Source: a virus (Duplodnaviria > Heunggongvirae > Uroviricota > Caudoviricetes). From it: a stretch of DNA of 64,000 bases. The stretch is taken from IMG/VR virus record IMGVR_UViG_3300045988_145635. The stretch is one strand, 5' to 3'. Positions 11,571 to 37,887 of the stretch are shown piece by piece; the first letter of the stretch is position 1, and each line of letters opens with the position of its first letter. The translations under genes were made by a program, and so were the position numbers. The notes beneath the pieces are model-generated. The model had not been told where the DNA came from. It did not search any database and saw only the letters and a program-made list of their open reading frames with translations.

Positions 11571-11990
11571 ATGTTTAGTGAAATGTTGCTTGAAGATGAA
11601 CTGGATCGGAAAACAACAGAGGCTTTGATTCGTGTAGCGGACGAACATTCCCGGTCGCTTATGAGCGATCGAGAGGCTCGTCTGGCTATTCGTGCCATAT
11701 TCGAAACTGCGCAGGGGCTTGTTGGTACACAAGTGGGTGAAGCCATTAACATCGCCATGTCTCAGTTCAGTGAAGGCAGTAAAAAGCCTCTGTTTCCTAT
11801 GCATTTGATGCTGGCTGGTGGCACGGTGCTTTATATCTCTGTTTGTCTGGATAGCAACCAAATCAATATTCTCAACACTGTGTCAGGTAAGTGGAAAGAT
11901 CCGATTGTCTGTGAAACCAGTGAAGAAACTTTGAAAAAAGCGGCTCAATTTGTACGTAGCGCACTACTTAAGGGCGCTAAGAAGTTGTAA
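11571..11990 (+). CDS. hypothetical protein
   Basis: 139-aa ORF with plausible AAGGA ribosome-binding site upstream. Confidence 0.45.
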   Translation: MFSEMLLEDELDRKTTEALIRVADEHSRSLMSDREARLAIRAIFETAQGLVGTQVGEAINIAMSQFSEGSKKPLFPMHLMLAGGTVLYISVCLDSNQINILNTVSGKWKDPIVCETSEETLKKAAQFVRSALLKGAKKL

Positions 11991-11999
11991 GGAGTTCTG

Positions 12000-12557
12000 A
12001 TGACAACGATTGTTGCAGGCATCGATATCGAGTCTACGGGACTGGATTTCCTTGCTGGTCATAAAATTATTGAAATCGCAATTACCCGCTATGAACTGGA
12101 GACACAGAGACATATTGATAGTCTGGAGATGCGTTTTAACCCTCGCAGAAACATAGATCCGAAAGCTCAAGCCGTTCATGGCATTTCATTGGAACAGCTC
12201 GCAGCTGAACCTTTGTTGTCAAATCATGCCAGCGAAATTGGCGCTTATATGGGGGCATGTAGTGTGTGGGTTGCTCATAACGGCGAAGCATTTGATATAC
12301 CATTTATTCGACACGAGTTTTCAGGGTATGGAGTAAGACTGCCAGAAGTTCCTGTTATAGATACTATGTTATCGGGATTGTGGGCCACAGAAGACGGTAA
12401 ACGTCCCCGCCTTGAAGAGTTGGCCTTCTCTCTTGGCTTTATATACGATCATGCCAAAGCACATAGTGCCTTATATGACACAAACTTAATGATGCAATGC
12501 TTCTTTAAGGCACGTAATAAGTACGGATTTTTTAAATTACCCTCTGAAATTGTGTAA
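12000..12557 (+). CDS. DnaQ-like 3'-5' exonuclease (DEDDh family)
   Basis: Exo I GIDIESTG, Exo II VAHNGEAFDIPF, Exo III HSALYD motifs. Confidence 0.75.
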   Translation: MTTIVAGIDIESTGLDFLAGHKIIEIAITRYELETQRHIDSLEMRFNPRRNIDPKAQAVHGISLEQLAAEPLLSNHASEIGAYMGACSVWVAHNGEAFDIPFIRHEFSGYGVRLPEVPVIDTMLSGLWATEDGKRPRLEELAFSLGFIYDHAKAHSALYDTNLMMQCFFKARNKYGFFKLPSEIV

Positions 12558-12715
12558 AACAAAAGCCTACTTTAAAAAGTTTAAAGTAGGCTTTCTTTTA
12601 AAGAACAGTCGCCTTTCAATCATTTCCTGCCTGTATTTAATACTTTTCCGCCTGATAGGTTTAGTCAAAATGTAGCCATCGAAACGCAAATGTAACCAAA
12701 CAGAAGGAGACTTAC

Positions 12716-13525
12716 ATGAGTTCGGTTGAAAATGTAATGACAAATGATGATCTGGACGAGCTGGCAGCCATGTTGCAATCACTTGATGAACCAGTAAAAA
12801 AAGCTGCGCAGGTTGAAAATACTGATGATATTGACGATCTGCTGCTCGGCCTAGATGCTGGCGTAGCCATGAGTTCTGATGATGTTGCCGAAGAACTGTT
12901 CAATGAAGAAAAAGCAGGTGATTTCAGCTCAGCTTTAAATGAGTTGGAGTTAGCGCATGAGCCTATAAACGTAATTAACGCTGAAAGTGGTGAAGCTGCC
13001 GAAAACGAACCAGAACAGTTGGGGATCATCGAGGTTGAAGGGTGTGTTGAGATTAATGATGAATTAAAAGTTCAACAGTCAAATGATAGCAACACAAATA
13101 AAAAAGCGCGTACTGCAAGAGGTCCTCGTTTTGCTCTAAGTGATAAAGATGATGCGTTTTTCAATAAAGCGGGTTTAGAGAAAGATATTTTTTTAGACGC
13201 TTACGATAACGCGCCTGTCAAAGCAAAGGATAAGATATTAAACCTTCTTAATTGGTTTAGCGGAGGTCCAGATATTAGTGTTTACACGGTAATTTCCATG
13301 AGACACCTTCTCACAGAAAAGAAGGCTACAAGTAATAGTATTAAGATTGCTTTAATGAGCAATCCAGAAAAACCGTATCCGCTTAACACTGCGTCAACTC
13401 AGGCTGGGCAAATGATGGCTGTATTTCCAGCGACAGGAATTGCCGTTAGAGACGGTGGAAATCTAACATTGAACGAAGAATCACCGATCGTTAAGAAGTT
13501 TGTCGCGGAGTACACTATTGGATGA
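12716..13525 (+). CDS. hypothetical protein with highly acidic N-terminal half
   Basis: 269-aa ORF; first ~130 residues are strongly D/E-rich. Confidence 0.5.
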   Translation: MSSVENVMTNDDLDELAAMLQSLDEPVKKAAQVENTDDIDDLLLGLDAGVAMSSDDVAEELFNEEKAGDFSSALNELELAHEPINVINAESGEAAENEPEQLGIIEVEGCVEINDELKVQQSNDSNTNKKARTARGPRFALSDKDDAFFNKAGLEKDIFLDAYDNAPVKAKDKILNLLNWFSGGPDISVYTVISMRHLLTEKKATSNSIKIALMSNPEKPYPLNTASTQAGQMMAVFPATGIAVRDGGNLTLNEESPIVKKFVAEYTIG

Positions 13526-13708
13526 CGTTCCCCTACTGAAAATAAAGCCCATAGAGAGCTTTATAGTGCTGGGTAAGCCAATCACATACCCAGCACCACA
13601 AAAACGCGCCAGAGAGCTTCTCGTTTGCATTTCTGGCGCGTTTTATTTGATTGCCAGACATAAAATCAAATGCAAAAATAGGTATTTACTTACCTATCGA
13701 GAAAGAAG

Positions 13709-14302
13709 ATGATTGCAGCCGAAAAAATCAAACAGCGAAAGCGCGACAACTCTCTTCGTGACCTCTGGAGAACACCTGACTGGCTGTTTTCTGCCATTCA
13801 ACGTTATCTTGGAGTGACATTTGATGTTGACGTTGCCTGCAACAAGGACAATGCAAAGCTGCCTAATTTCATAGGCGTTGAGCGTGATGCTTTGAAATCT
13901 GAATGGGGACAGCCAGGTACAATTGCCTTCCTCAATCCACCCTACTCCAAAATCTCCCCCTGGATTGATGCGGCTATACGTGAGCAGGCTCGCGGAGTTA
14001 CAACAGTGATGCTAATTCCTCAATCCCTAGATACAAAGTGGTATGAGCGTGCAACAGAGTGTGCGAATGAGACGATTATTCTGTCTGGTGGCCGCGTAGC
14101 GTTTGTCGAGCCTGACGTCAATCTGGGTCAGGTAGAAGTAAACATCAACCCAGGTGGCAGTATGCTCGTTGTTTTTCGAGGATTCTGTCAGGACGCTGGG
14201 CACTCTATAAGCAAGATCCCTTTGGACGTCATGAAAAGTCTGGGAGGGTATGATCCTGCGAATGTGATCAGGAAAAAAAGACCATCAAAGAAGGCTGCTT
14301 AG
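13709..14302 (+). CDS. DNA N6-adenine methyltransferase (phage Dam-like)
   Basis: FLNPPYS catalytic motif in a ~190-aa protein typical of small phage adenine methyltransferases. Confidence 0.75.
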   Translation: MIAAEKIKQRKRDNSLRDLWRTPDWLFSAIQRYLGVTFDVDVACNKDNAKLPNFIGVERDALKSEWGQPGTIAFLNPPYSKISPWIDAAIREQARGVTTVMLIPQSLDTKWYERATECANETIILSGGRVAFVEPDVNLGQVEVNINPGGSMLVVFRGFCQDAGHSISKIPLDVMKSLGGYDPANVIRKKRPSKKAA

Positions 14303-16798: not shown

Positions 16799-16817
16799 GA
16801 AAACAACTTGTTTTAAC
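16799..16817 (+). promoter_or_regulatory. class A palindromic motif (AAAACAA-C-TTGTTTT)
   Basis: GAAAACAACTTGTTTTAAC about 20 nt upstream of ATG 16838. Confidence 0.5.
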
Positions 16818-24955: not shown

Positions 24956-25578
24956 GCACGGTAGCGAAAGATCTCACAGAAGATATTCTCAATGAAATTA
25001 TTGCTGGTGCAAATACCTCGCTTGAGCAACTTCTTGCGTTAGCACTGAGAGCCGAACGTCGAGACAGAAATCGTTTTTATGAGCGATTACCAGGGAAGCG
25101 ACCAGATAGATCGGATGAAGAAGGTTGCGATATAGACTACATGGAGCCTTCAGAGATTTATCAACTTGGTAAAGATGACGGCTGGAACGCTTATCACGAT
25201 GCTGTGATGAAGTTGGATGAAAAAGTTAAACCTCTTTCTCGACCGGTAGATCACGGTTTCCGCGATAACTGCGAATGCTCTAGTTGCCAGACCACGGCCC
25301 GTATTTGTTCCGAATTGACAGATAAGTCCAGCCTAATCTACGAAGTTAATGTAGGCGGTAATACATGGGTCGAATGCACAAGAGCTGCATACGTAAGAGC
25401 AAAAGACAAGGGTGAATTAACCAGAGTTGTTACCAATCACCCAAATAATGAGCTTAAAGATCACCAGATTCGAGAACTGGTGAACGAGTTGAGAGATATT
25501 GCGGTTCAGTACCACGGAACGCAGCAATTGCGGGAGAAGATTGCCAGAGCAGTGAACAACTCAGTCCGTAAAAAATAA
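24952..25578 (+). CDS. hypothetical protein
   Basis: 208-aa ORF, last gene of the + strand array before the non-coding gap. Confidence 0.5.
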   Translation: MSTVAKDLTEDILNEIIAGANTSLEQLLALALRAERRDRNRFYERLPGKRPDRSDEEGCDIDYMEPSEIYQLGKDDGWNAYHDAVMKLDEKVKPLSRPVDHGFRDNCECSSCQTTARICSELTDKSSLIYEVNVGGNTWVECTRAAYVRAKDKGELTRVVTNHPNNELKDHQIRELVNELRDIAVQYHGTQQLREKIARAVNNSVRKK

Positions 25579-25596
25579 GCAATAGTACGATAAAGA

Positions 25597-25621
25597 GGCC
25601 CCATGCTCTTGATGGGGCCTG
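25597..25621 (+). terminator. hairpin AGGCCCCAT-N7-ATGGGGCCT
   Basis: 9-bp perfect inverted repeat directly after the stop of the 24952-25578 gene; no clean T-run. Confidence 0.4.
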
Positions 25622-26016
25622 TAGCAACTAGCGTTATGGACGCTGGTTTACGTACTCAATGATCGCTTTGATAATCGCGAACATCGGCGGCACGATTTTG
25701 AACAGTAAGTTAACCATAACAGGCCTCACTTAGTTTTATCGCGCCTAGCTGCAAATACCTTTGGGCTTGCCTTTGCAGTTGCAATATCTGTAGTCGCCAG
25801 ATACTTACGGCACGATTTCGAGTTAAGGTAAGGTTTTAGAGTCACCAAAAACCTGGACTTAAATCTTCTTTGAGAACAACGATGTTTAGTAAATGGTCAT
25901 TATTACCTGGTATGACCACTCAACGTTTCTTGATGAATCCAGTACATTCGGTTAATCTTAATTCAGTCGCCAGATACTTATGGCTCAGGAACAGAGCCGC
26001 AAACTCTGTTTCCTTT

Positions 26017-26047
26017 TAAAAAGCCCAGCCTAGTCAACTGGGCTTTT
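26017..26047. terminator. bidirectional rho-independent terminator
   Basis: AAAAAGCCCAG-loop-CTGGGCTTTTT: GC stem flanked by an A-run and a T-run. Confidence 0.6.
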
Positions 26048-26343
26048 TAATGTCTATTTTTAACCCAATGAACCTTCAATACCGCAACATCAGTGTCTTG
26101 CGAATTAAGATAGTGTGTATAGGTTATGCATGCAAGTGCATAACTCTGTGGATAACTCAGGAAGGAAAAAGTAGCTTCCGCGCAATTTAGGCCAGACAAG
26201 GCTTTCGCAAAAGTCAACAGAGAGAAAAAATTTGTTAAAAATAACGTTTGTTGGAATTGTATATATTTATGCCTTTCAATAGTTAGCATCTTATTAACAT
26301 CTTTTTTAAGAGATAGAGTTCAAAAATATATAGCTTCAACATA

Positions 26344-26363
26344 TACTGTATGTGTATACAGTA
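26344..26363. promoter_or_regulatory. LexA (SOS) box
   Basis: TACTGTATGTGTATACAGTA fits CTGT-N8-ACAG with AT-rich centre; 16 nt upstream of the umuD'-like start, overlapping its promoter region. Confidence 0.75.
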
Positions 26364-26379
26364 TTAAGAGGCGAGTATT

Positions 26380-26769
26380 ATGGGCTTCCCTTCTCCTGCG
26401 GCGGATTATGCTGAGAGCCGTATTTCTCTTGATCAGCAGATAATTAGACATCCTTCAGCGACCTACTTCATGAGGGCAGCTGATAGTCATCATCGTGAGG
26501 GAATATTGCAGGGCGCATTGCTGGTGGTCGATTCCTCACTTACCCCGGTTGATGGTTCTCTGCTTGTATGCGCTCTGGATGGGGAATATCGCGTAAAAAG
26601 ATACCGGAAGTATCCACGTCAGCATCTGGAGGATTTAAGAACTGGTAAGAAGGAAGCATTGCCAAAGGATGACGATGGATGCACGGGCAGCAATGCCGTG
26701 TTTGGTGTGATCACTCACATTATCAACGACGCAAGAAGTGGCGAGTTTGATGATTGTCCTGTGATGTAG
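26380..26769 (+). CDS. UmuD'-like protein (UmuD homologue beginning at the position of the RecA-mediated cleavage site)
   Basis: Begins MGFPSPAADY ... HPSATYF, matching UmuD residues directly after the Cys24-Gly25 cleavage site; Ser and Lys retained in ADSH and VKRY; AAGAGG ribosome-binding site; LexA box upstream. Confidence 0.75.
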   Translation: MGFPSPAADYAESRISLDQQIIRHPSATYFMRAADSHHREGILQGALLVVDSSLTPVDGSLLVCALDGEYRVKRYRKYPRQHLEDLRTGKKEALPKDDDGCTGSNAVFGVITHIINDARSGEFDDCPVM

Positions 26770-26780
26770 GAGAACTGTTT

Positions 26781-26806
26781 AGGTGGTGCAATGCACCACC
26801 TTTTTA
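26781..26806 (+). terminator. rho-independent terminator
   Basis: Perfect 10-bp palindrome AGGTGGTGCA/TGCACCACCT followed by TTTTAT, between the convergent umuD'-like and mrp genes. Confidence 0.7.
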
Positions 26807-27907
26807 TCACACTGCGCGGAATGCGATTTCGCCAGGTATTACTTCACCTTGCCAATACATTTGGGCAGCAACGCGATCTGCGAGGTCACGATAAATAGCC
26901 GTAAATTCGCTATCTGGACGACTAATAACGGTTGGTGTTCCGTTATCCAGATCTTCACGAAGAGAGATATGAAGTGGCATTTGGCCTAACAACTGCGTGT
27001 TGTATTTCTCGGCCAGTTTCTGTGCGCCACCGGTGCCAAAAATTGGCTCGTGATGACCGCAGTTACTGCAAATATGCACACTCATGTTTTCGACGATACC
27101 CAGTACCGGCACTTCGACTTTTTCGAACATCACAATGCCTTTCTTCGCATCGATCAGCGCGATGTCTTGCGGCGTAGTTACCACAACCGCACCAGTTACA
27201 GGAATGTTCTGCGCCAGCGTCAACTGAATATCACCAGTGCCCGGCGGCATATCGAGAACGAGATAGTCCAGATCAGGCCATAGAGTTTCCTGCAACATCT
27301 GCATCAGCGCCTTGCTGGCCATCGGTCCACGCCACACCATTGCATTGTCGTCGGTGACCAGATAACCAATAGAGTTGGTTGCCAGGCCATGAGACATGAT
27401 AGGTGCCATGTGAGTACCGTCCGGTGAGGTTGGACGTTGGTTTTCCGCGCCCAGCATGGTTGGAATTGATGGACCATAGATATCGGCATCCAAAATACCA
27501 ACTTTCGCACCTTCAGCAGCCAACGCCAGTGCCAGATTTACCGCCGTGGAGGATTTACCTACGCCGCCCTTGCCTGAGCTGACGGCGATAATGTTCTTAA
27601 CGCCATTAATGCCTGGTTGGTTTTTGACGCGCTTAAGCGTGGCAATGTTGTACGACAGCTTCCAGTCAATAGCCTTTGCGCCAGTGATACGGAGCAGATC
27701 ACCACTACATTGCTCTTTCAGGTCTTCAAAAGGCTTATTCCACACGAAAGGCATGATTAGTTCGACATGCAGTGTGTCATCCATCAACGCAACATGGTGT
27801 AACGCTTTAAGCGTAGTCAGGTTGTGTTTCAGGGTTGGGTGCTGAAAATTAGCCAGCGTACCGGCTACCATTGCTCTCAGGGCATCCGGCGATTTGGACT
27901 CGCTCAT
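26807..27907 (-). CDS. apbC: Fe-S cluster carrier ATPase Mrp/ApbC (host-type)
   Basis: 366-aa protein that matches recalled enterobacterial Mrp almost throughout (SGKGGVGKSSTAVNLALAL, CSNCGHHEPIFG); divergent from metG as in enterobacterial chromosomes. Confidence 0.95.
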   Translation of the reverse strand: MSESKSPDALRAMVAGTLANFQHPTLKHNLTTLKALHHVALMDDTLHVELIMPFVWNKPFEDLKEQCSGDLLRITGAKAIDWKLSYNIATLKRVKNQPGINGVKNIIAVSSGKGGVGKSSTAVNLALALAAEGAKVGILDADIYGPSIPTMLGAENQRPTSPDGTHMAPIMSHGLATNSIGYLVTDDNAMVWRGPMASKALMQMLQETLWPDLDYLVLDMPPGTGDIQLTLAQNIPVTGAVVVTTPQDIALIDAKKGIVMFEKVEVPVLGIVENMSVHICSNCGHHEPIFGTGGAQKLAEKYNTQLLGQMPLHISLREDLDNGTPTVISRPDSEFTAIYRDLADRVAAQMYWQGEVIPGEIAFRAV

Positions 27908-28064
27908 CCCGTCTCCTTTATTTTAATTTGCGCAATTGTCGCCTTGTAGTGTACTCCAGCTACGACATTTAATCATTTATGAGAAATGCTGTTATCACAT
28001 GGCAGACATAAGGCCATTTTGTTACTATCAAGCCCCTTTTCACTACAAAGAAGTAATGCCTACT

Positions 28065-30098
28065 ATGACCCAAGTCGCGAAGAAAATTCTGGTGACGTGC
28101 GCGCTGCCGTACGCTAACGGCTCAATCCACCTCGGCCATATGCTGGAGCACATCCAGGCTGATGTCTGGGTTCGTTACCAGCGAATGCGCGGCCACGAGG
28201 TTAATTTCATCTGTGCCGACGATGCCCACGGTACGCCGATCATGCTGAAAGCGCAGCAGCTTGGTATCACACCGGAGCAGATGATTGGCGAAATGAGTCA
28301 GGAACACCAGACTGATTTCGCAGGCTTTAACATCAGCTATGACAACTATCACTCGACGCACAGCGAAGAGAACCGTCAGTTGTCTGAGCTTATCTATACT
28401 CGCCTGAAAGAGAACGGTTTTATTAAAAACCGCACTATCTCTCAGTTGTACGACCCGGAAAAAGGCATGTTCCTGCCGGATCGTTTTGTAAAAGGCACCT
28501 GCCCGAAATGTAAAGCGCCAGATCAATACGGCGATAACTGTGAAGTCTGCGGCGCAACATATAGCCCGACTGAATTGATCGAGCCGAAATCGGTGGTTTC
28601 TGGCGCTACCCCGGTAATGCGTGATTCCGAACACTTCTTCTTTGATCTGCCTTCTTTCAGCGAAATGTTGCAGGCATGGACCCGCAGCGGCGCGTTGCAG
28701 GAGCAGGTGGCGAACAAAATGCAGGAATGGTTTGAATCCGGCCTGCAACAGTGGGATATCTCCCGCGATGCGCCTTACTTCGGTTTTGAAATTCCGGACG
28801 CGCCGGGCAAATATTTCTACGTCTGGCTGGACGCGCCGATTGGCTACATGGGTTCCTTCAAGAATCTGTGCGACAAGCGCGGCGATACCACCAGCTTCGA
28901 TGAATACTGGAAGAAAGACTCCACCGCCGAGCTGTACCACTTCATCGGTAAAGATATTGTTTACTTCCACAGCCTGTTCTGGCCTGCCATGCTGGAAGGC
29001 AGCAACTTCCGCAAGCCGACCAACCTGTTTGTTCACGGCTATGTGACAGTGAACGGCGCGAAGATGTCCAAGTCTCGCGGTACCTTTATTAAAGCCAGCA
29101 CCTGGCTGAATCATTTTGACGCCGACAGCCTGCGTTACTACTACACTGCGAAACTCTCTTCGCGCATTGATGATATCGATCTCAACCTGGAGGATTTCGT
29201 TCAGCGCGTGAATGCCGATATCGTGAACAAAGTGGTTAACCTGGCCTCCCGTAATGCAGGCTTTATCAACAAGCGTTTTGACGGCGTGCTGGCAAGCGAA
29301 CTGGCTGACCCGCAACTGTACAAAACCTTTACTGATGCCGCTGAAGTGATTGGCGAAGCATGGGAAAGCCGCGAATTTGGTAAAGCTATCCGTGAAATCA
29401 TGGCATTGGCTGACCTGGCTAACCGCTATGTCGATGAACAGGCTCCGTGGGTGGTGGCGAAGCAGGAAGGGCGCGATGCCGATCTGCAGGCGATTTGCTC
29501 TATGGGCATTAACCTGTTCCGCGTGCTGATGACGTACCTGAAACCGGTACTGCCGAAACTGACTGAACGTGCAGAAGCATTCCTGAATACAGAACTGACC
29601 TGGGATGGTATCCAGCAACCGCTGCTGGGCCATAAAGTGAATCCGTTCAAGGCACTGTATAACCGTATCGATATGAAACAGGTGGAAGCACTGGTGGAAG
29701 CATCCAAAGAAGAAGTGAAAGCCACAGCCGCACCGGTAACTGGCCCACTGGCTGACGACCCGATTCAGGAAACCATCACCTTTGACGACTTCGCCAAAGT
29801 TGACCTGCGTGTGGCGCTGATTGAAAACGCGGAGTTTGTTGAAGGCTCTGACAAACTGCTGCGTCTGACACTGGATCTCGGTGGGGAAAAGCGTAATGTC
29901 TTCTCAGGCATCCGTTCTGCTTATCCCGACCCACAGGCATTGATTGGTCGTCACACCATTATGGTGGCTAACCTGGCTCCGCGTAAAATGCGCTTCGGTA
30001 TCTCCGAAGGCATGGTGATGGCTGCTGGCCCCGGCGGGAAAGATATCTTCCTGTTAAGCCCGGATGCTGGTGCTAAACCTGGCCACCAGGTTAAGTAA
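28065..30098 (+). CDS. metG: methionine--tRNA ligase (host-type)
   Basis: 677-aa protein from [25 protein letters not shown] to the C-terminal tRNA-binding domain; essentially identical to recalled E. coli MetG with a handful of substitutions; HIGH and KMSKS motifs present. Confidence 0.97.
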
Positions 30099-30117
30099 TT
30101 AAACAACCTCTGTTCGC

Positions 30118-30146
30118 AATGCCCGGCAACACGCTGGGCATTTTCA
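30118..30146 (+). terminator. metG terminator hairpin
   Basis: AATGCCCGG-loop-CTGGGCATTTT immediately after the metG stop. Confidence 0.55.
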
Positions 30147-30181
30147 TATAGACACAATCCCTTCTGATTTACGCATACCCT

Positions 30182-30247
30182 AAAACAATTTGTTTTCTGC
30201 CTTTTGTTAATTGAGATAATAAGCCACATAAGAAAACAAATTGTTTC
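30182..30247 (+). promoter_or_regulatory. class A extended module
   Basis: AAAACAATTTGTTTTCTGCC ... AGAAAACAAATTGTTT ending a few nt before ATG 30251; marks resumption of phage-type sequence after metG. Confidence 0.55.
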
Positions 30248-30250
30248 GGA

Positions 30251-30559
30251 GTGGTTGAAATGTTGAACATTACCCAAGCCTACCAGGTGGCATTGATCAG
30301 TTCATCTCATACATCAGAGGAAGATGCTCGTCGATTCATGATCGCAAGCAATGAGCTGGATTGGGTTTCGCAAATTGACGGCGGTTGTATTGTCCACGCC
30401 GGGTTACAGGATGATGTCTGGAAAGACGACTTGCGTCGATATGGTATATCCGAAGGCGCGATTGCTAACATTCAGAAAGTACTTGATGTAGGCTTTGACT
30501 CTGTACATTTTGATTGTGGTGCGCCGGTCGTTGAAGGGCTTGAGTGCTGGAACTGGTAA
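30251..30559 (+). CDS. hypothetical protein
   Basis: 102-aa ORF directly downstream of a class A module. Confidence 0.5.
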   Translation: MVEMLNITQAYQVALISSSHTSEEDARRFMIASNELDWVSQIDGGCIVHAGLQDDVWKDDLRRYGISEGAIANIQKVLDVGFDSVHFDCGAPVVEGLECWNW

Positions 30560-30604
30560 CAGATATTAAAGCATTGGTAGTTTGTTTTTAGGATTATCAA
30601 AGAA

Positions 30605-31339
30605 ATGAAAAAGTTGAAAAGTTTAGAAATCCCTGGGACTGGTTATAAATTCTTTATGGACAACGCGGAGTGTGCACCTAACGCGTTGGAAAAAATACAA
30701 AGTCTTATCAACAGCCTTACTGAAGAAGCGAAAGAACTGAAGAGCGAGGCGACAAAGGACAATACAGCTAAAATCCAATGCTTAAATCTCGTTTCTTATT
30801 GTTTATATCAAGTGTCCAAGACACTGATTAAAGGCAATATCTATTACGACGATGAAGACACCTCGACACCTGAAGAAAAAGATAGCGATGAAGAACTCTA
30901 TGAAGATATCTCTACTAGTGCGGGTCACGCTGCCTTCGATGCTATGGGTAAATCGTCAGGCATCAGATCATTTGTTGAACAGAACAATTCGACAATAATG
31001 ATTGAGTACTGTGAACAAACAAGCTCCAAGGCCATACATGTTCTTCACGATGTTGCTGCAGGGGTTCGCTGTGAGGCTGAAGCGGTCAGAAAAGATGTAT
31101 TTGGTGCAGACAGTAATACCGTGAAAGCGTTCATCAACAGTGCTCTGCTAAATTCTTACTCAAACCTTATCGTCAATGCGGCACTATGCGCAAATTCTGG
31201 TGAAGAACACATTGTCATAACCGAAACCAAATATGAGCATCAACAGTCACCAACCATAGAAGAGGTAACTGCATTGGCTATCAAACAGGCGAGTGAAATT
31301 AGTGATGAAATTCTCTCTCTGCTAAACAAAACTAAGTAA
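30605..31339 (+). CDS. hypothetical protein
   Basis: 244-aa ORF with plausible ribosome-binding site. Confidence 0.5.
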   Translation: MKKLKSLEIPGTGYKFFMDNAECAPNALEKIQSLINSLTEEAKELKSEATKDNTAKIQCLNLVSYCLYQVSKTLIKGNIYYDDEDTSTPEEKDSDEELYEDISTSAGHAAFDAMGKSSGIRSFVEQNNSTIMIEYCEQTSSKAIHVLHDVAAGVRCEAEAVRKDVFGADSNTVKAFINSALLNSYSNLIVNAALCANSGEEHIVITETKYEHQQSPTIEEVTALAIKQASEISDEILSLLNKTK

Positions 31340-31446
31340 AACATTGATAATGGCGGTCACAATTTGATTCTTTTCTATAAGAATCCGTTGATCGCCACTA
31401 CTCCCCTTCCATGCCTGGAATCACATCCTTAAATATCAATAGGTTA

Positions 31447-31482
31447 CAGTTGTTTATACCAATAAGAAAACAACTGAATAAC
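31447..31482 (+). promoter_or_regulatory. class A motif, split-palindrome variant
   Basis: CAGTTGTTT-N11-AAACAACTG inverted repeat including CCAATAAGAAAACAA, placed at the start of the AC-rich ORF-free tract. Confidence 0.4.
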
Positions 31483-32337
31483 AGATCAACGAAACATCAA
31501 CGCTTTCACCCGATTTGGTCTAAAAAATTGACGTTTTCACACATCACTGCTTATACCCGTAATTCTACGCAGCAGACAGCGCCACAGCGTCCAATTTTCA
31601 CCACAGACGACCCAACACACTACCAACAAAAACACACGCTCAAAATCGTTCCCGTTGCGTTACATAACCATATAAACAACTTATTTTCAGGAATAACAAA
31701 ACAACTAAATAACACATATGCCATTCCCAAAACAACCAACCTCTTTATGGCAGGCTACCGAAAAGACCCACCTCTTCTTCCCAGGCTACCGGACAACCAA
31801 CCTAACTTTCACAGGCAATCCGAAAACATTCATACGCGCGATACCCACGACACGCCATTACCCAAACAACGAAGAAACACCTGAACCACTGAAACCCCAA
31901 CGAAGCCTGTTACCGCAAGGATTCTCTCAATCCCAAAAGACACGAAACATAACAATCACGGGAAACGCCATTACCCAATACACGAATAACTACAAAAGCC
32001 CTTCACACACTCCAGACAAACAACTCAAACACAATAACGAAAGGAATCGCCCACCTGCCATTACTCCATACACGGAGAAGAACAATCACCAAAACGACGA
32101 GAACACCCCATAGAAGAACCACCGCAAAACGAACGAAACCACATACACCGACAGAGAGAACAACACACCCAATTCACCAACAGAAATAGTCGCCGTATAG
32201 AACGTTCTGGAAGGAGTGAGCATTAACGCCTATAGAGAGGTTGAAACAGATAAAACACGAAGAAAACACAACATGTATAGCGAAGAAGCCAGGTATGTAT
32301 AAGTGGGGAGGGAAGGAGGGGTGTCGCCTCCTTTTTC
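31483..32337 (+). ncRNA. candidate long A+C-rich non-coding transcript (hypothetical)
   Basis: ~850 bp with strong depletion of G and T on the + strand and no credible ORF; begins after a class A-like motif and ends at a GGAGG-loop-CCTCC-TTTTT hairpin (32314-32337). Confidence 0.2.
32314..32337 (+). terminator. rho-independent terminator-like hairpin
   Basis: AGGAGG-GGTGTCG-CCTCCT followed by TTTTT. Confidence 0.5.
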
Positions 32338-32399
32338 GTATTTATTCAACTCCTGATTTTATCCCCCGTAACACCCCTACGGTCAGCCTTCGGTCCATA

Positions 32400-32540
32400 C
32401 AGGGAAAAGGTTGCATCCCGCTACAGAAACGGCTGGGTTGCCTTCGGGGAACGGCTGGGGATTTTCAGGGAAACGGTCGAGTTGCCTGTGTGGATTTCGG
32501 GAAAAGGCTCGATGCCGGTTCAGGAACGGTGGCGTACCGG
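32400..32540 (+). repeat. degenerate tandem repeats, about 6 units of ~20-23 bp (CAGGGAAA-CGG-CTG type)
   Basis: Successive units CAGGGAAAAGGTTGCATCC, ACAGAAACGGCTGGGTTGCC, GGGGAACGGCTGGGGATTTT, CAGGGAAACGGTCGAGTTGCC, CGGGAAAAGGCTCGATGCC, CAGGAACGGTGGCGTACCGG. Confidence 0.6.
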
Positions 32541-32853
32541 TATAGCGTGAGGGAGAGTTGCGGCTGTCCACCTGTAATGTGCGGGAAGAAGAGAGGCGCT
32601 CACGTGCAGGCGAACTTACTTACCGTTGGACTCCCTCTGAATGCCCAGCTACAGCGTAATTGTGCCAGACAGTCAGCGGGTCACAATCGATTTCAGTAGG
32701 TTTTCGGGGAGAGGATTATTCTGCCCACCAGCCACCTTCGGCCACTAAATCAGAATAATGTAAAAAGTGTACTCGGTACTGAACCTGAAAACTCACTGCC
32801 AAAACCACATTCACCGGAATAAAATCCTTTTTCGCCTGTGCGTTATTGCGATA

Positions 32854-37587: not shown

Positions 37588-37887
37588 TTACATCTTTTTT
37601 GCATAGTTCCTGATTTCTTTTATTATATATTCCTGAAAACGCTCCGAGTTTTCGCATTTGTCTTTTGAAGACTCATCAAGTCCCAACTTGCATCCCGCAA
37701 CGATCAGTCCATCTTGATATGCAGCGCCTAAAGCCATGCTTAGGTCTAACATGCACAAATCGTAGTCTTCCGCCTTTGAACACAACTCTGTAGAGACACG
37801 TTGCACTCGTTCAATGCTATTTTCTTGAGAAAATGCGGAAGAGCTAAAAATGAAAGTTAAGAATGTGAATGCTGCTACAGTTTTCAT
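37588..37887 (-). CDS. small secreted Cys-containing protein (paralogue A)
   Basis: N-terminal signal peptide MKTVAAFTFLTFIFSSSAFS; four cysteines with spacing similar to the paralogue at 37963-38259. Confidence 0.5.
   Translation of the reverse strand: MKTVAAFTFLTFIFSSSAFSQENSIERVQRVSTELCSKAEDYDLCMLDLSMALGAAYQDGLIVAGCKLGLDESSKDKCENSERFQEYIIKEIRNYAKKM

Follow-up and report, generated by a model that had tools for sequence, protein, structure and literature searches.

The 64,000-nucleotide (nt) stretch of DNA analyzed here, which is taken from the virus record IMGVR_UViG_3300045988_145635 (Caudoviricetes) and is hereafter designated the window, contains at positions 26807–30146 a divergent pair of genes of bacterial housekeeping type, apbC (mrp) and metG, embedded in phage DNA. 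A preliminary description made from the letters of the sequence alone had called this block identical to host DNA and had offered capture of host DNA or an assembly or construction chimera as explanations. Its coordinates and gene identities were confirmed by the open reading frames (ORFs), their translations, and equivalog scores, and the chromosomal divergent arrangement that it pointed out indeed matches the mrp-metG locus of Escherichia coli. The analysis described below makes it very probable, however, that the block is an old capture by an SSU5-type phage-plasmid, now kept as selected functional cargo, with continued exchange between its metG and that of the chromosome. The features at the locus are as follows.

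26380–26769, plus strand: humD (UmuD-like, P1-type), left neighbor of the block
26781–26801: hairpin terminator (9-base-pair stem, then TTTTT) at which the convergent genes humD and apbC meet
26807–27907, minus strand: apbC/mrp, iron-sulfur (Fe-S) cluster carrier P-loop ATPase of 366 residues
27908–28064: divergent intergenic region of 157 nt, regulatory
28065–30098, plus strand: metG, full-length methionine-tRNA ligase of 677 residues, including the C-terminal tRNA-binding domain
30118–30146, plus strand: metG terminator, a hairpin with a T-run
30178–30246, plus strand: SSU5-type promoter/operator cassette, with an inverted repeat at 30183–30198 and 30231–30246
30260–30559, plus strand: DUF5983 gene (Pfam DUF5983, PHROG 5003), right neighbor of the block

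Judged by profiles and motifs, the two genes encode an intact methionine-tRNA ligase (methionyl-tRNA synthetase, MetRS) and an intact ApbC/Mrp Fe-S carrier. ApbC scored 759.3 bits with the NCBIfam equivalog NF008669 (cut-off, 348) and contains the deviant Walker A motif GKGGVGKS and the cluster-binding CXXC motif in the form CSNC. MetG scored 1020.9 bits with the equivalog NF001100 (cut-off, 587) and 697 with TIGR00398 (cut-off, 336), and its C-terminal tRNA-binding/dimerization domain (residues 543–677) gave 163 bits with TIGR00399 (cut-off, 116.65). The HLGH (residues 22–25) and KMSKS (333–337) motifs, the zinc-knuckle cysteines (CPKC...CEVC), and the anticodon-binding Trp462 are all intact and as in E. 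coli K-12, and the C-terminus (residues 620–677) is the same as that of K-12. In the ORF listing with translations, the mechanically called frame containing metG begins upstream of the gene, at 27936. The guanine-plus-cytosine (GC) content of the block (51.2%) exceeds that of the 10 kb on each side (45.3% and 42.0%).

The sequence of the block is not identical to host DNA. Homology with K-12 is confined to 26811–30099, that is, from stop codon to stop codon, and amounts to 88% overall; identity to the block is no higher than ~89–90% throughout the 5,426 complete E. coli chromosomes, in comparison with 97–99% for plasmids and phage records. The metG gene is 93.6% identical to that of K-12 at the nucleotide level (131 differences; synonymous divergence, dS, 0.33; ratio of nonsynonymous to synonymous divergence, dN/dS, 0.02), and the encoded protein is 98.7% identical, with conservative changes at 9 of the 677 residues, most of which are common states of other Enterobacteriaceae. 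The apbC gene is only 82% identical (94.5% for the protein, whose N-terminus is shorter by three residues), with dS values of 1.4–1.8 to all genera compared (~1.6 to E. coli, saturated) and dN/dS of ~0.02. As for the intergenic region, alignment with Escherichia is limited to the 47 nt adjoining metG, and the remainder has a Citrobacter-type layout, including a segment of ~25 nt that is present in the Citrobacter-type architecture and missing from E. coli and Salmonella. Nor is the terminator behind metG the native one that the preliminary description took it for, because its sequence is unlike those of E. coli K-12, Citrobacter, and Salmonella, differing from E. coli and the eight other genera inspected. 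Thus, compared with the K-12 locus (b2113–b2114), the block has the same gene pair, divergent orientation, protein lengths, motifs, and metG-proximal promoter element but differs by 6.4% (metG) and 18% (apbC) of nucleotides, in the intergenic architecture, and in the terminators, and it is without the yehE/yehF flanks. It is largely a divergent homologue carried by the element (dS, ~1.6 for apbC and 0.33 for metG; fixed in the clade, as described below) and not near-identical host sequence. In the same comparisons, a 5,272-base-pair record deposited as Salmonella phage S.Kent 1-2-1 (OR850913.1) matched 27313–30099 at 84%, the ordinary level for metG of Salmonella; apparently, a piece of the chromosomal mrp-metG locus was deposited there as a phage record.

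Selection on the block was examined in nine copies that were fetched by DNA similarity, hence without preselection at the protein level (the window, Cyrano, E. coli B-1109, AVS0747, Escherichia marmotae, Shigella sonnei, Escherichia albertii, PhiR41_1, and CMS-2020a). Among the 67 variable sites in apbC, 60 are at third codon positions and none changes an amino acid; the 242 variable sites in metG give seven proteins, with a ratio of nonsynonymous to synonymous polymorphism (pN/pS) of 0.015. The 157-nt intergenic region is the same as that of the window in six of the eight other copies, with one difference in PhiR41_1 and one additional base in the E. marmotae copy. The dN/dS of ~0.02, the invariant ApbC protein, the low pN/pS of metG, and the almost invariant intergenic region argue that strong purifying selection maintains apbC, metG, and the control region between them on the element. 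Moreover, all genera aligned have kept the element TGnTACTAT, which here lies 37 nt before the start of metG, and this cross-genus conservation makes TGTTACTAT (28020–28028) a candidate for an extended −10 promoter of metG.

The two halves of the block have apparently had different histories. In phylogenetic terms, apbC is about equidistant from Escherichia, Citrobacter, and Salmonella and forms a long branch inside that group with no resolved sister; metG falls inside Escherichia in 100 of 100 bootstraps. The GC content at third codon positions (GC3) of apbC, 0.525, lies below those of all 13 chromosomal orthologues (0.60–0.76) and near those of the phage genes (0.39–0.51), as long residence on the element would produce; that of metG, 0.618, is about equal to K-12 and thus of chromosomal type. 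The metG alleles of different plasmids are up to 6.9% apart, twice the figure for apbC, and contain tracts resembling K-12: in the relative L090, 283 nt are 100% identical to K-12 where the window allele is 93% identical, and in a complete plasmid, nt 1731–1842 are 98% identical in comparison with 90% (permutation p < 5e-5 in both cases). At only 10 metG sites do all plasmid alleles share a state that neither of the two Escherichia chromosomes examined has. The simplest reading would be one old mrp-metG capture, after which metG was repeatedly patched from host chromosomes; at 82% identity, apbC is probably too diverged for homologous exchange.

The window itself evidently comes from a phage-plasmid of SSU5 type, akin to Cyrano/pLF82 and pWPMR2. 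It encodes a terminase, a portal protein, a structural protein with an immunoglobulin-like (Ig) domain, a 1,532-residue tape-measure protein, an SbcC-like nuclease subunit, and a class Ia ribonucleotide reductase, and the 24 kb adjoining the block match Cyrano over 85% of their length at 97% identity and SSU5 over 22% at 85.5%. Relatives of the window have the replicon type IncFIB, and the block is located in the variable accessory region following the DUF4942 gene. Together with its flanks (25000–31500, 6.5 kb), it was found whole, at 97–99% identity and exclusively on plasmids (~105–121 kb), in 107 complete E. coli genomes, and about 219 complete E. coli plasmid records (~108 kb) contain the block at an identity of at least 95%. 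Complete E. coli genomes contain 248 occurrences of the terminase-portal segment, all on plasmids (~100–116 kb) and none on a chromosome, and the records of the backbone at an identity of at least 95%, all of plasmids, number 216. Since backbone and block records are thus nearly equal in number (216 and 219), the clade has apbC-metG as a fixed core component and not as a sporadic passenger. In PLSDB, it is found on plasmids of E. coli, E. albertii, E. marmotae, and S. sonnei (97.7–98.7% identity in the last), and the phage records containing it are Cyrano (pLF82 of E. coli LF82), PhiR41_1 (recorded host, K-12 MG1655), and CMS-2020a. The best matches to the window are at 98.9%, the junction sequences are equal base for base across plasmid and phage records, and 12,090 blocks of a public assembly collection index the exact ApbC protein.

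Cyrano, or pLF82 (OV696614/NC_011917; PMC9928086), shares with the window the backbone, the block, and its junctions, the two genes being annotated there as MinD and MetRS, and differs from it by 30 nucleotides in metG, 22 in apbC, and the variable genes to the left of humD. It has been described as an SSU5-like phage-plasmid with 5.5 copies per cell; its virions were deduced from electron microscopy, virome coverage being inconclusive and the matching siphovirus being merely hypothesized to be Cyrano (PMC9928086). Salmonella phage SSU5 and the pHCM2 type likewise share the backbone, the variable region after the DUF4942 gene, and repeated promoter/operator cassettes, but they are without apbC-metG and have other small genes at the equivalent site upstream of SSU5_104.

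On the left of the block, humD (219.8 bits with the NCBIfam HumD equivalog; UmuD-like in PHROG), which is 86–87% identical to humD of P1/P7, ends 37 nt from the stop codon of apbC, so that phage genes do not end at 25578, as had been thought. The hairpin between the two genes has a folding energy of −15.3 kcal/mol (z = −4.4) and shows a compensatory T-A/C-G change among the copies (GGTGGTGC/GCACCACC versus GGCGGTGC/GCACCGCC). In two relatives the left neighbor is different, with der standing there in the E. marmotae plasmid and humD deleted in L087; in variants with another left neighbor, similarity begins only ~10–17 nt before the apbC stop codon, which places the left edge of the constant block at ~26798. 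On the right, metG is followed by ~80 nt containing its terminator hairpin (−16.9 kcal/mol, z = −3.9; one pair is G-C, G-U, or A-U among the copies), and SSU5-type homology resumes at 30178. The phage-specific "class A" module that the preliminary description had noticed after metG is evidently the promoter/operator cassette at this place, with which the SSU5-type backbone returns. This cassette is 88.6% identical to the sequence upstream of SSU5_104 and consists of an AT-rich core flanked by the 16-nt arms of a perfect inverted repeat; in some relatives, an extra DUF1380 gene, as in SSU5, lies between metG and the DUF5983 gene. Its near-palindromic motif, AAACAAWTTGTTT, occurs nine times in the window, in comparison with 0.35 expected (positions 16801, 17530, 22071, 30183, 30234, 33354, 34258, 35021, and 45800, all listed on the plus strand). 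The sites are paired around AT-rich promoter-like cores upstream of accessory genes, an arrangement common to SSU5, and are probably operators of a phage-plasmid regulator that governs the accessory-gene cassettes. Searches around the block for flanking direct repeats, insertion sequence (IS) elements, and repeats resembling attachment (att) sites gave just short repeats at chance level, and neither tRNA genes nor Rfam families were found.

The gene in the place of humD in the E. marmotae plasmid (L085, NZ_CP072690.1; 5476–6948), beside apbC, is a full-length der, encoding the GTPase of ribosome assembly. Its nucleotide identity with K-12 der is 91.6%, with 9 of 490 amino acids different, and it was taken up along with ~115 nt from its upstream side and what remains of the bamB 3′ end. 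At this position, therefore, a housekeeping gene with a role in translation was captured a second time, independently of the block.

Several further observations concern the surrounding element. In L086 and L093, genes for a 291-residue beta-lactamase and a 420-residue DDE transposase (11843–14236) lie a few kb away from the block, still within this variable region, an arrangement that recalls the CTX-M-15 phage-plasmid pECOH89 (PMC3999498). Three GenBank records of chromosome size contain phage-plasmid DNA with the block (L091, CP043541.1, 5.57 Mb; L087 and L092, contigs of 2.7–4.9 Mb), and in L092, apbC adjoins lambdoid tail genes and metG is disrupted. No case of this kind was found in the RefSeq set of complete E. 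coli genomes, and the three records represent either integration elsewhere or mis-assembly. To the right of the block, the window has ~850 nt (31400–32250) that are G-poor on the plus strand (GC skew, −0.27; AT skew, +0.23) and contain degenerate repeats of 28–31 nt, followed by a G-rich stretch (32290–32720). The equivalent 1.5 kb contains no annotated gene in Cyrano, the B-1109 plasmid, or the E. marmotae plasmid, and 31400–32720 gave no Rfam match; it could be an origin/iteron-like region or a long non-coding RNA. A weak Pfam mark, ValRS_modifier, on a 99-residue protein of relatives was not reproduced for the 99-residue ORF of the window at 37588–37887, which is equivalent by position only.

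Collectively, these results lead us to the following proposal. The variable accessory region of an SSU5-type phage-plasmid would have taken up a chromosomal mrp(apbC)-metG cassette long ago, from an enterobacterium of the Escherichia/Citrobacter/Salmonella group, and the cassette would have been reduced to apbC, metG, and the divergent promoter region that they share. Given the two hairpin terminators that bracket the block, we predict that in the plasmid state of the element its expression depends on signals of its own. With both proteins intact and under selection, the cell would gain a second MetRS, at plasmid dosage, and a second ApbC. The apbC gene would since have diverged, its base composition drifting toward that of the phage, and metG would have repeatedly swapped segments with the chromosomal metG of the host by homologous recombination; this exchange would explain why metG is still Escherichia-like and yet highly variable between plasmids. 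Finally, expression of the auxiliary metG may produce a subpopulation that survives antibiotics, favoring both host and element, the survival phenotype being known from the literature only. Chromosomal origin, as one of the explanations in the preliminary description had it, is thus upheld, but not recent capture or capture from the present host (dS of apbC, ~1.6).

Some points weigh against this proposal. The strict conservation of ApbC finds no explanation in it. A consensus promoter scan of the intergenic region gave no strong sigma-70 site, and use of the putative metG promoter is suggested by its conservation only. The timing and the donor of the capture are those that we infer from sequence comparison: no donor of apbC was found among the at least 80 loci listed in a genome scan, a set without chromosomes of E. 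albertii, E. fergusonii, and E. marmotae, and the preference for an ancient capture over an unsampled donor rests on the amelioration of GC3 and the saturated dS. Membership in one group with pWPMR2 is likewise deduced from the S. sonnei plasmids containing the block and from citing papers.

Among the alternatives, one is that the genes serve the phage or plasmid directly, by charging Met-tRNA and supplying Fe-S clusters during lytic growth or starvation, or by providing a spare MetRS that withstands a toxin or inhibitor directed at MetRS, in analogy to plasmid-borne second synthetases such as MupA and MupB. We regard this as rather unlikely, in spite of its accounting for the conservation of both genes, not of metG alone, with an invariant ApbC, and of its accord with the nucleotide-metabolism genes that the element also encodes. 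The substitutions in MetG are conservative, mostly common states in Enterobacteriaceae, and do not make a distinct resistant type, and a literature search found no experimental support for such a service.

Another possibility is that the block acts mainly as a patch of homology for reversible integration at the chromosomal metG, the resulting cointegrate being able to mobilize or transduce neighboring DNA. There are indeed draft contigs of 0.2–0.6 Mb in which phage-plasmid and chromosomal DNA meet within metG (GCA_009790885.1 and GCA_028652695.1 are among the assemblies concerned). Of the two reciprocal forms, one (L086, L089, and L094) has the order phage-plasmid left part, humD, phage-plasmid apbC, metG, and yehH/I, and the other (L097, L098, L102, and L103) has the order yehBCDE, chromosomal apbC, metG, DUF5983 gene, and phage-plasmid right part. 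Their metG genes are hybrid, with the switch in or near the longest run identical between the two copies (nt 829–954, 126 nt), and the gene-conversion tracts likewise show that the two metG copies recombine. An assembler mis-join would, however, also switch inside a shared exact repeat, and neither junction was found in the 5,426 complete E. coli genomes. For this reason the contigs remain ambiguous; they may be assembler joins across the shared repeat or rare or transient cointegrates. As the backbone is chromosomal in 0 of 248 places, and strict protein-level selection on both genes would be left without explanation, we consider a mainly integrative role improbable. A tentative extension of the ancient-capture proposal, which is possible but doubtful, is that continual exchange of metG with the resident Escherichia or Shigella chromosome, perhaps via occasional reversible cointegrates in metG, not only gives the halves of the cassette different histories but also lets the element shuttle alleles of metG, some of which may confer tolerance, from one chromosome or lineage to another, with the invariant ApbC as co-selected cargo with its own role.

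A recent capture of near-identical DNA from the current host, resembling specialized transduction, is very unlikely. It would fit the gene order and orientation of the chromosomal locus and the 98.7% identity of MetG with K-12, and the 91.6% identity of the E. marmotae plasmid der with K-12 der is roughly what would be expected of a fresh E. marmotae capture (an expectation only). For the block itself, however, near-100% identity to the host was not seen in any of the E. coli chromosomes, the dS of apbC is ~1.6 and its GC3 is displaced toward the phage value, the intergenic region and terminator are not of E. coli type, flanking chromosomal DNA is absent, and the block is fixed across the clade. 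Lastly, the erroneous joining of host reads into a phage contig is excluded, in spite of the elevated GC content of the block and the draft assemblies joined inside metG, because the block and both identical junctions recur in more than 200 independently assembled complete plasmids of four species and in phage records, and because host reads could not yield a sequence that is 6–18% different from every E. coli chromosome.

In independent published work, mutations in metG, as well as lowered metG transcription, were shown to raise persistence (PMC11004401); the known persister mutations reported there (G263S/S264F, deletion of ETIT at 569–572, and a C-terminal frameshift) are absent from the metG of the window. 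According to a paper citing Tam et al. 2024 (PMC12452169; doi 10.1101/2024.10.27.24316207), the metG of a phage-plasmid in S. sonnei, pWPMR2, is multi- and highly variable, and its expression gives a subpopulation predisposed to third-generation cephalosporin resistance. In the available description of pWPMR2 (bioRxiv 10.1101/2025.09.12.675607), this element is placed in the SSU5 supergroup, is found mostly in S. sonnei and also in E. coli of CC131, CC23, and CC73, and belongs to a clade in which no antimicrobial resistance (AMR) or defense genes were detected. By these descriptions, the window and pWPMR2 have in common that they belong to SSU5-supergroup phage-plasmids of S. sonnei and E. coli in which an additional metG, highly variable, is present; with best matches at 98.9%, the window would represent a sister variant and not the same isolate. 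Thus, as far as these sources go, the presence of metG on this phage-plasmid lineage and its link to antimicrobial survival are already known. The descriptions of pWPMR2 available to us make no mention of the co-captured apbC, its age, or the gene-conversion pattern of metG. The details added here are incremental, namely, an apparently old apbC whose protein does not vary, a control region that is almost invariant, the exchange of metG with chromosomes, and der in the E. marmotae relative.

Second aminoacyl-tRNA synthetases borne on plasmids, such as the isoleucyl-tRNA synthetases (IleRS) MupA and MupB, are divergent, inhibitor-resistant enzymes. The present case is similar to MupA/MupB in that an extra synthetase copy on a mobile element alters drug survival, but the MetRS here is nearly an ordinary enterobacterial one, and the reported effect is persistence, not target resistance.

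A working, essential translation enzyme on a phage-plasmid would change host physiology without a classical resistance gene, and the published link of plasmid metG with antimicrobial survival, in the descriptions cited above, concerns epidemic S. sonnei. Because no AMR or defense genes were reported for the pWPMR2 clade in its available description, standard resistance-gene screens would miss such an element. For the scanning of genomes, the block illustrates that genes of housekeeping appearance within phage DNA need not be an artifact but can be fixed, selected cargo, and the details added here may serve as leads on how such cargo is kept and diversified.

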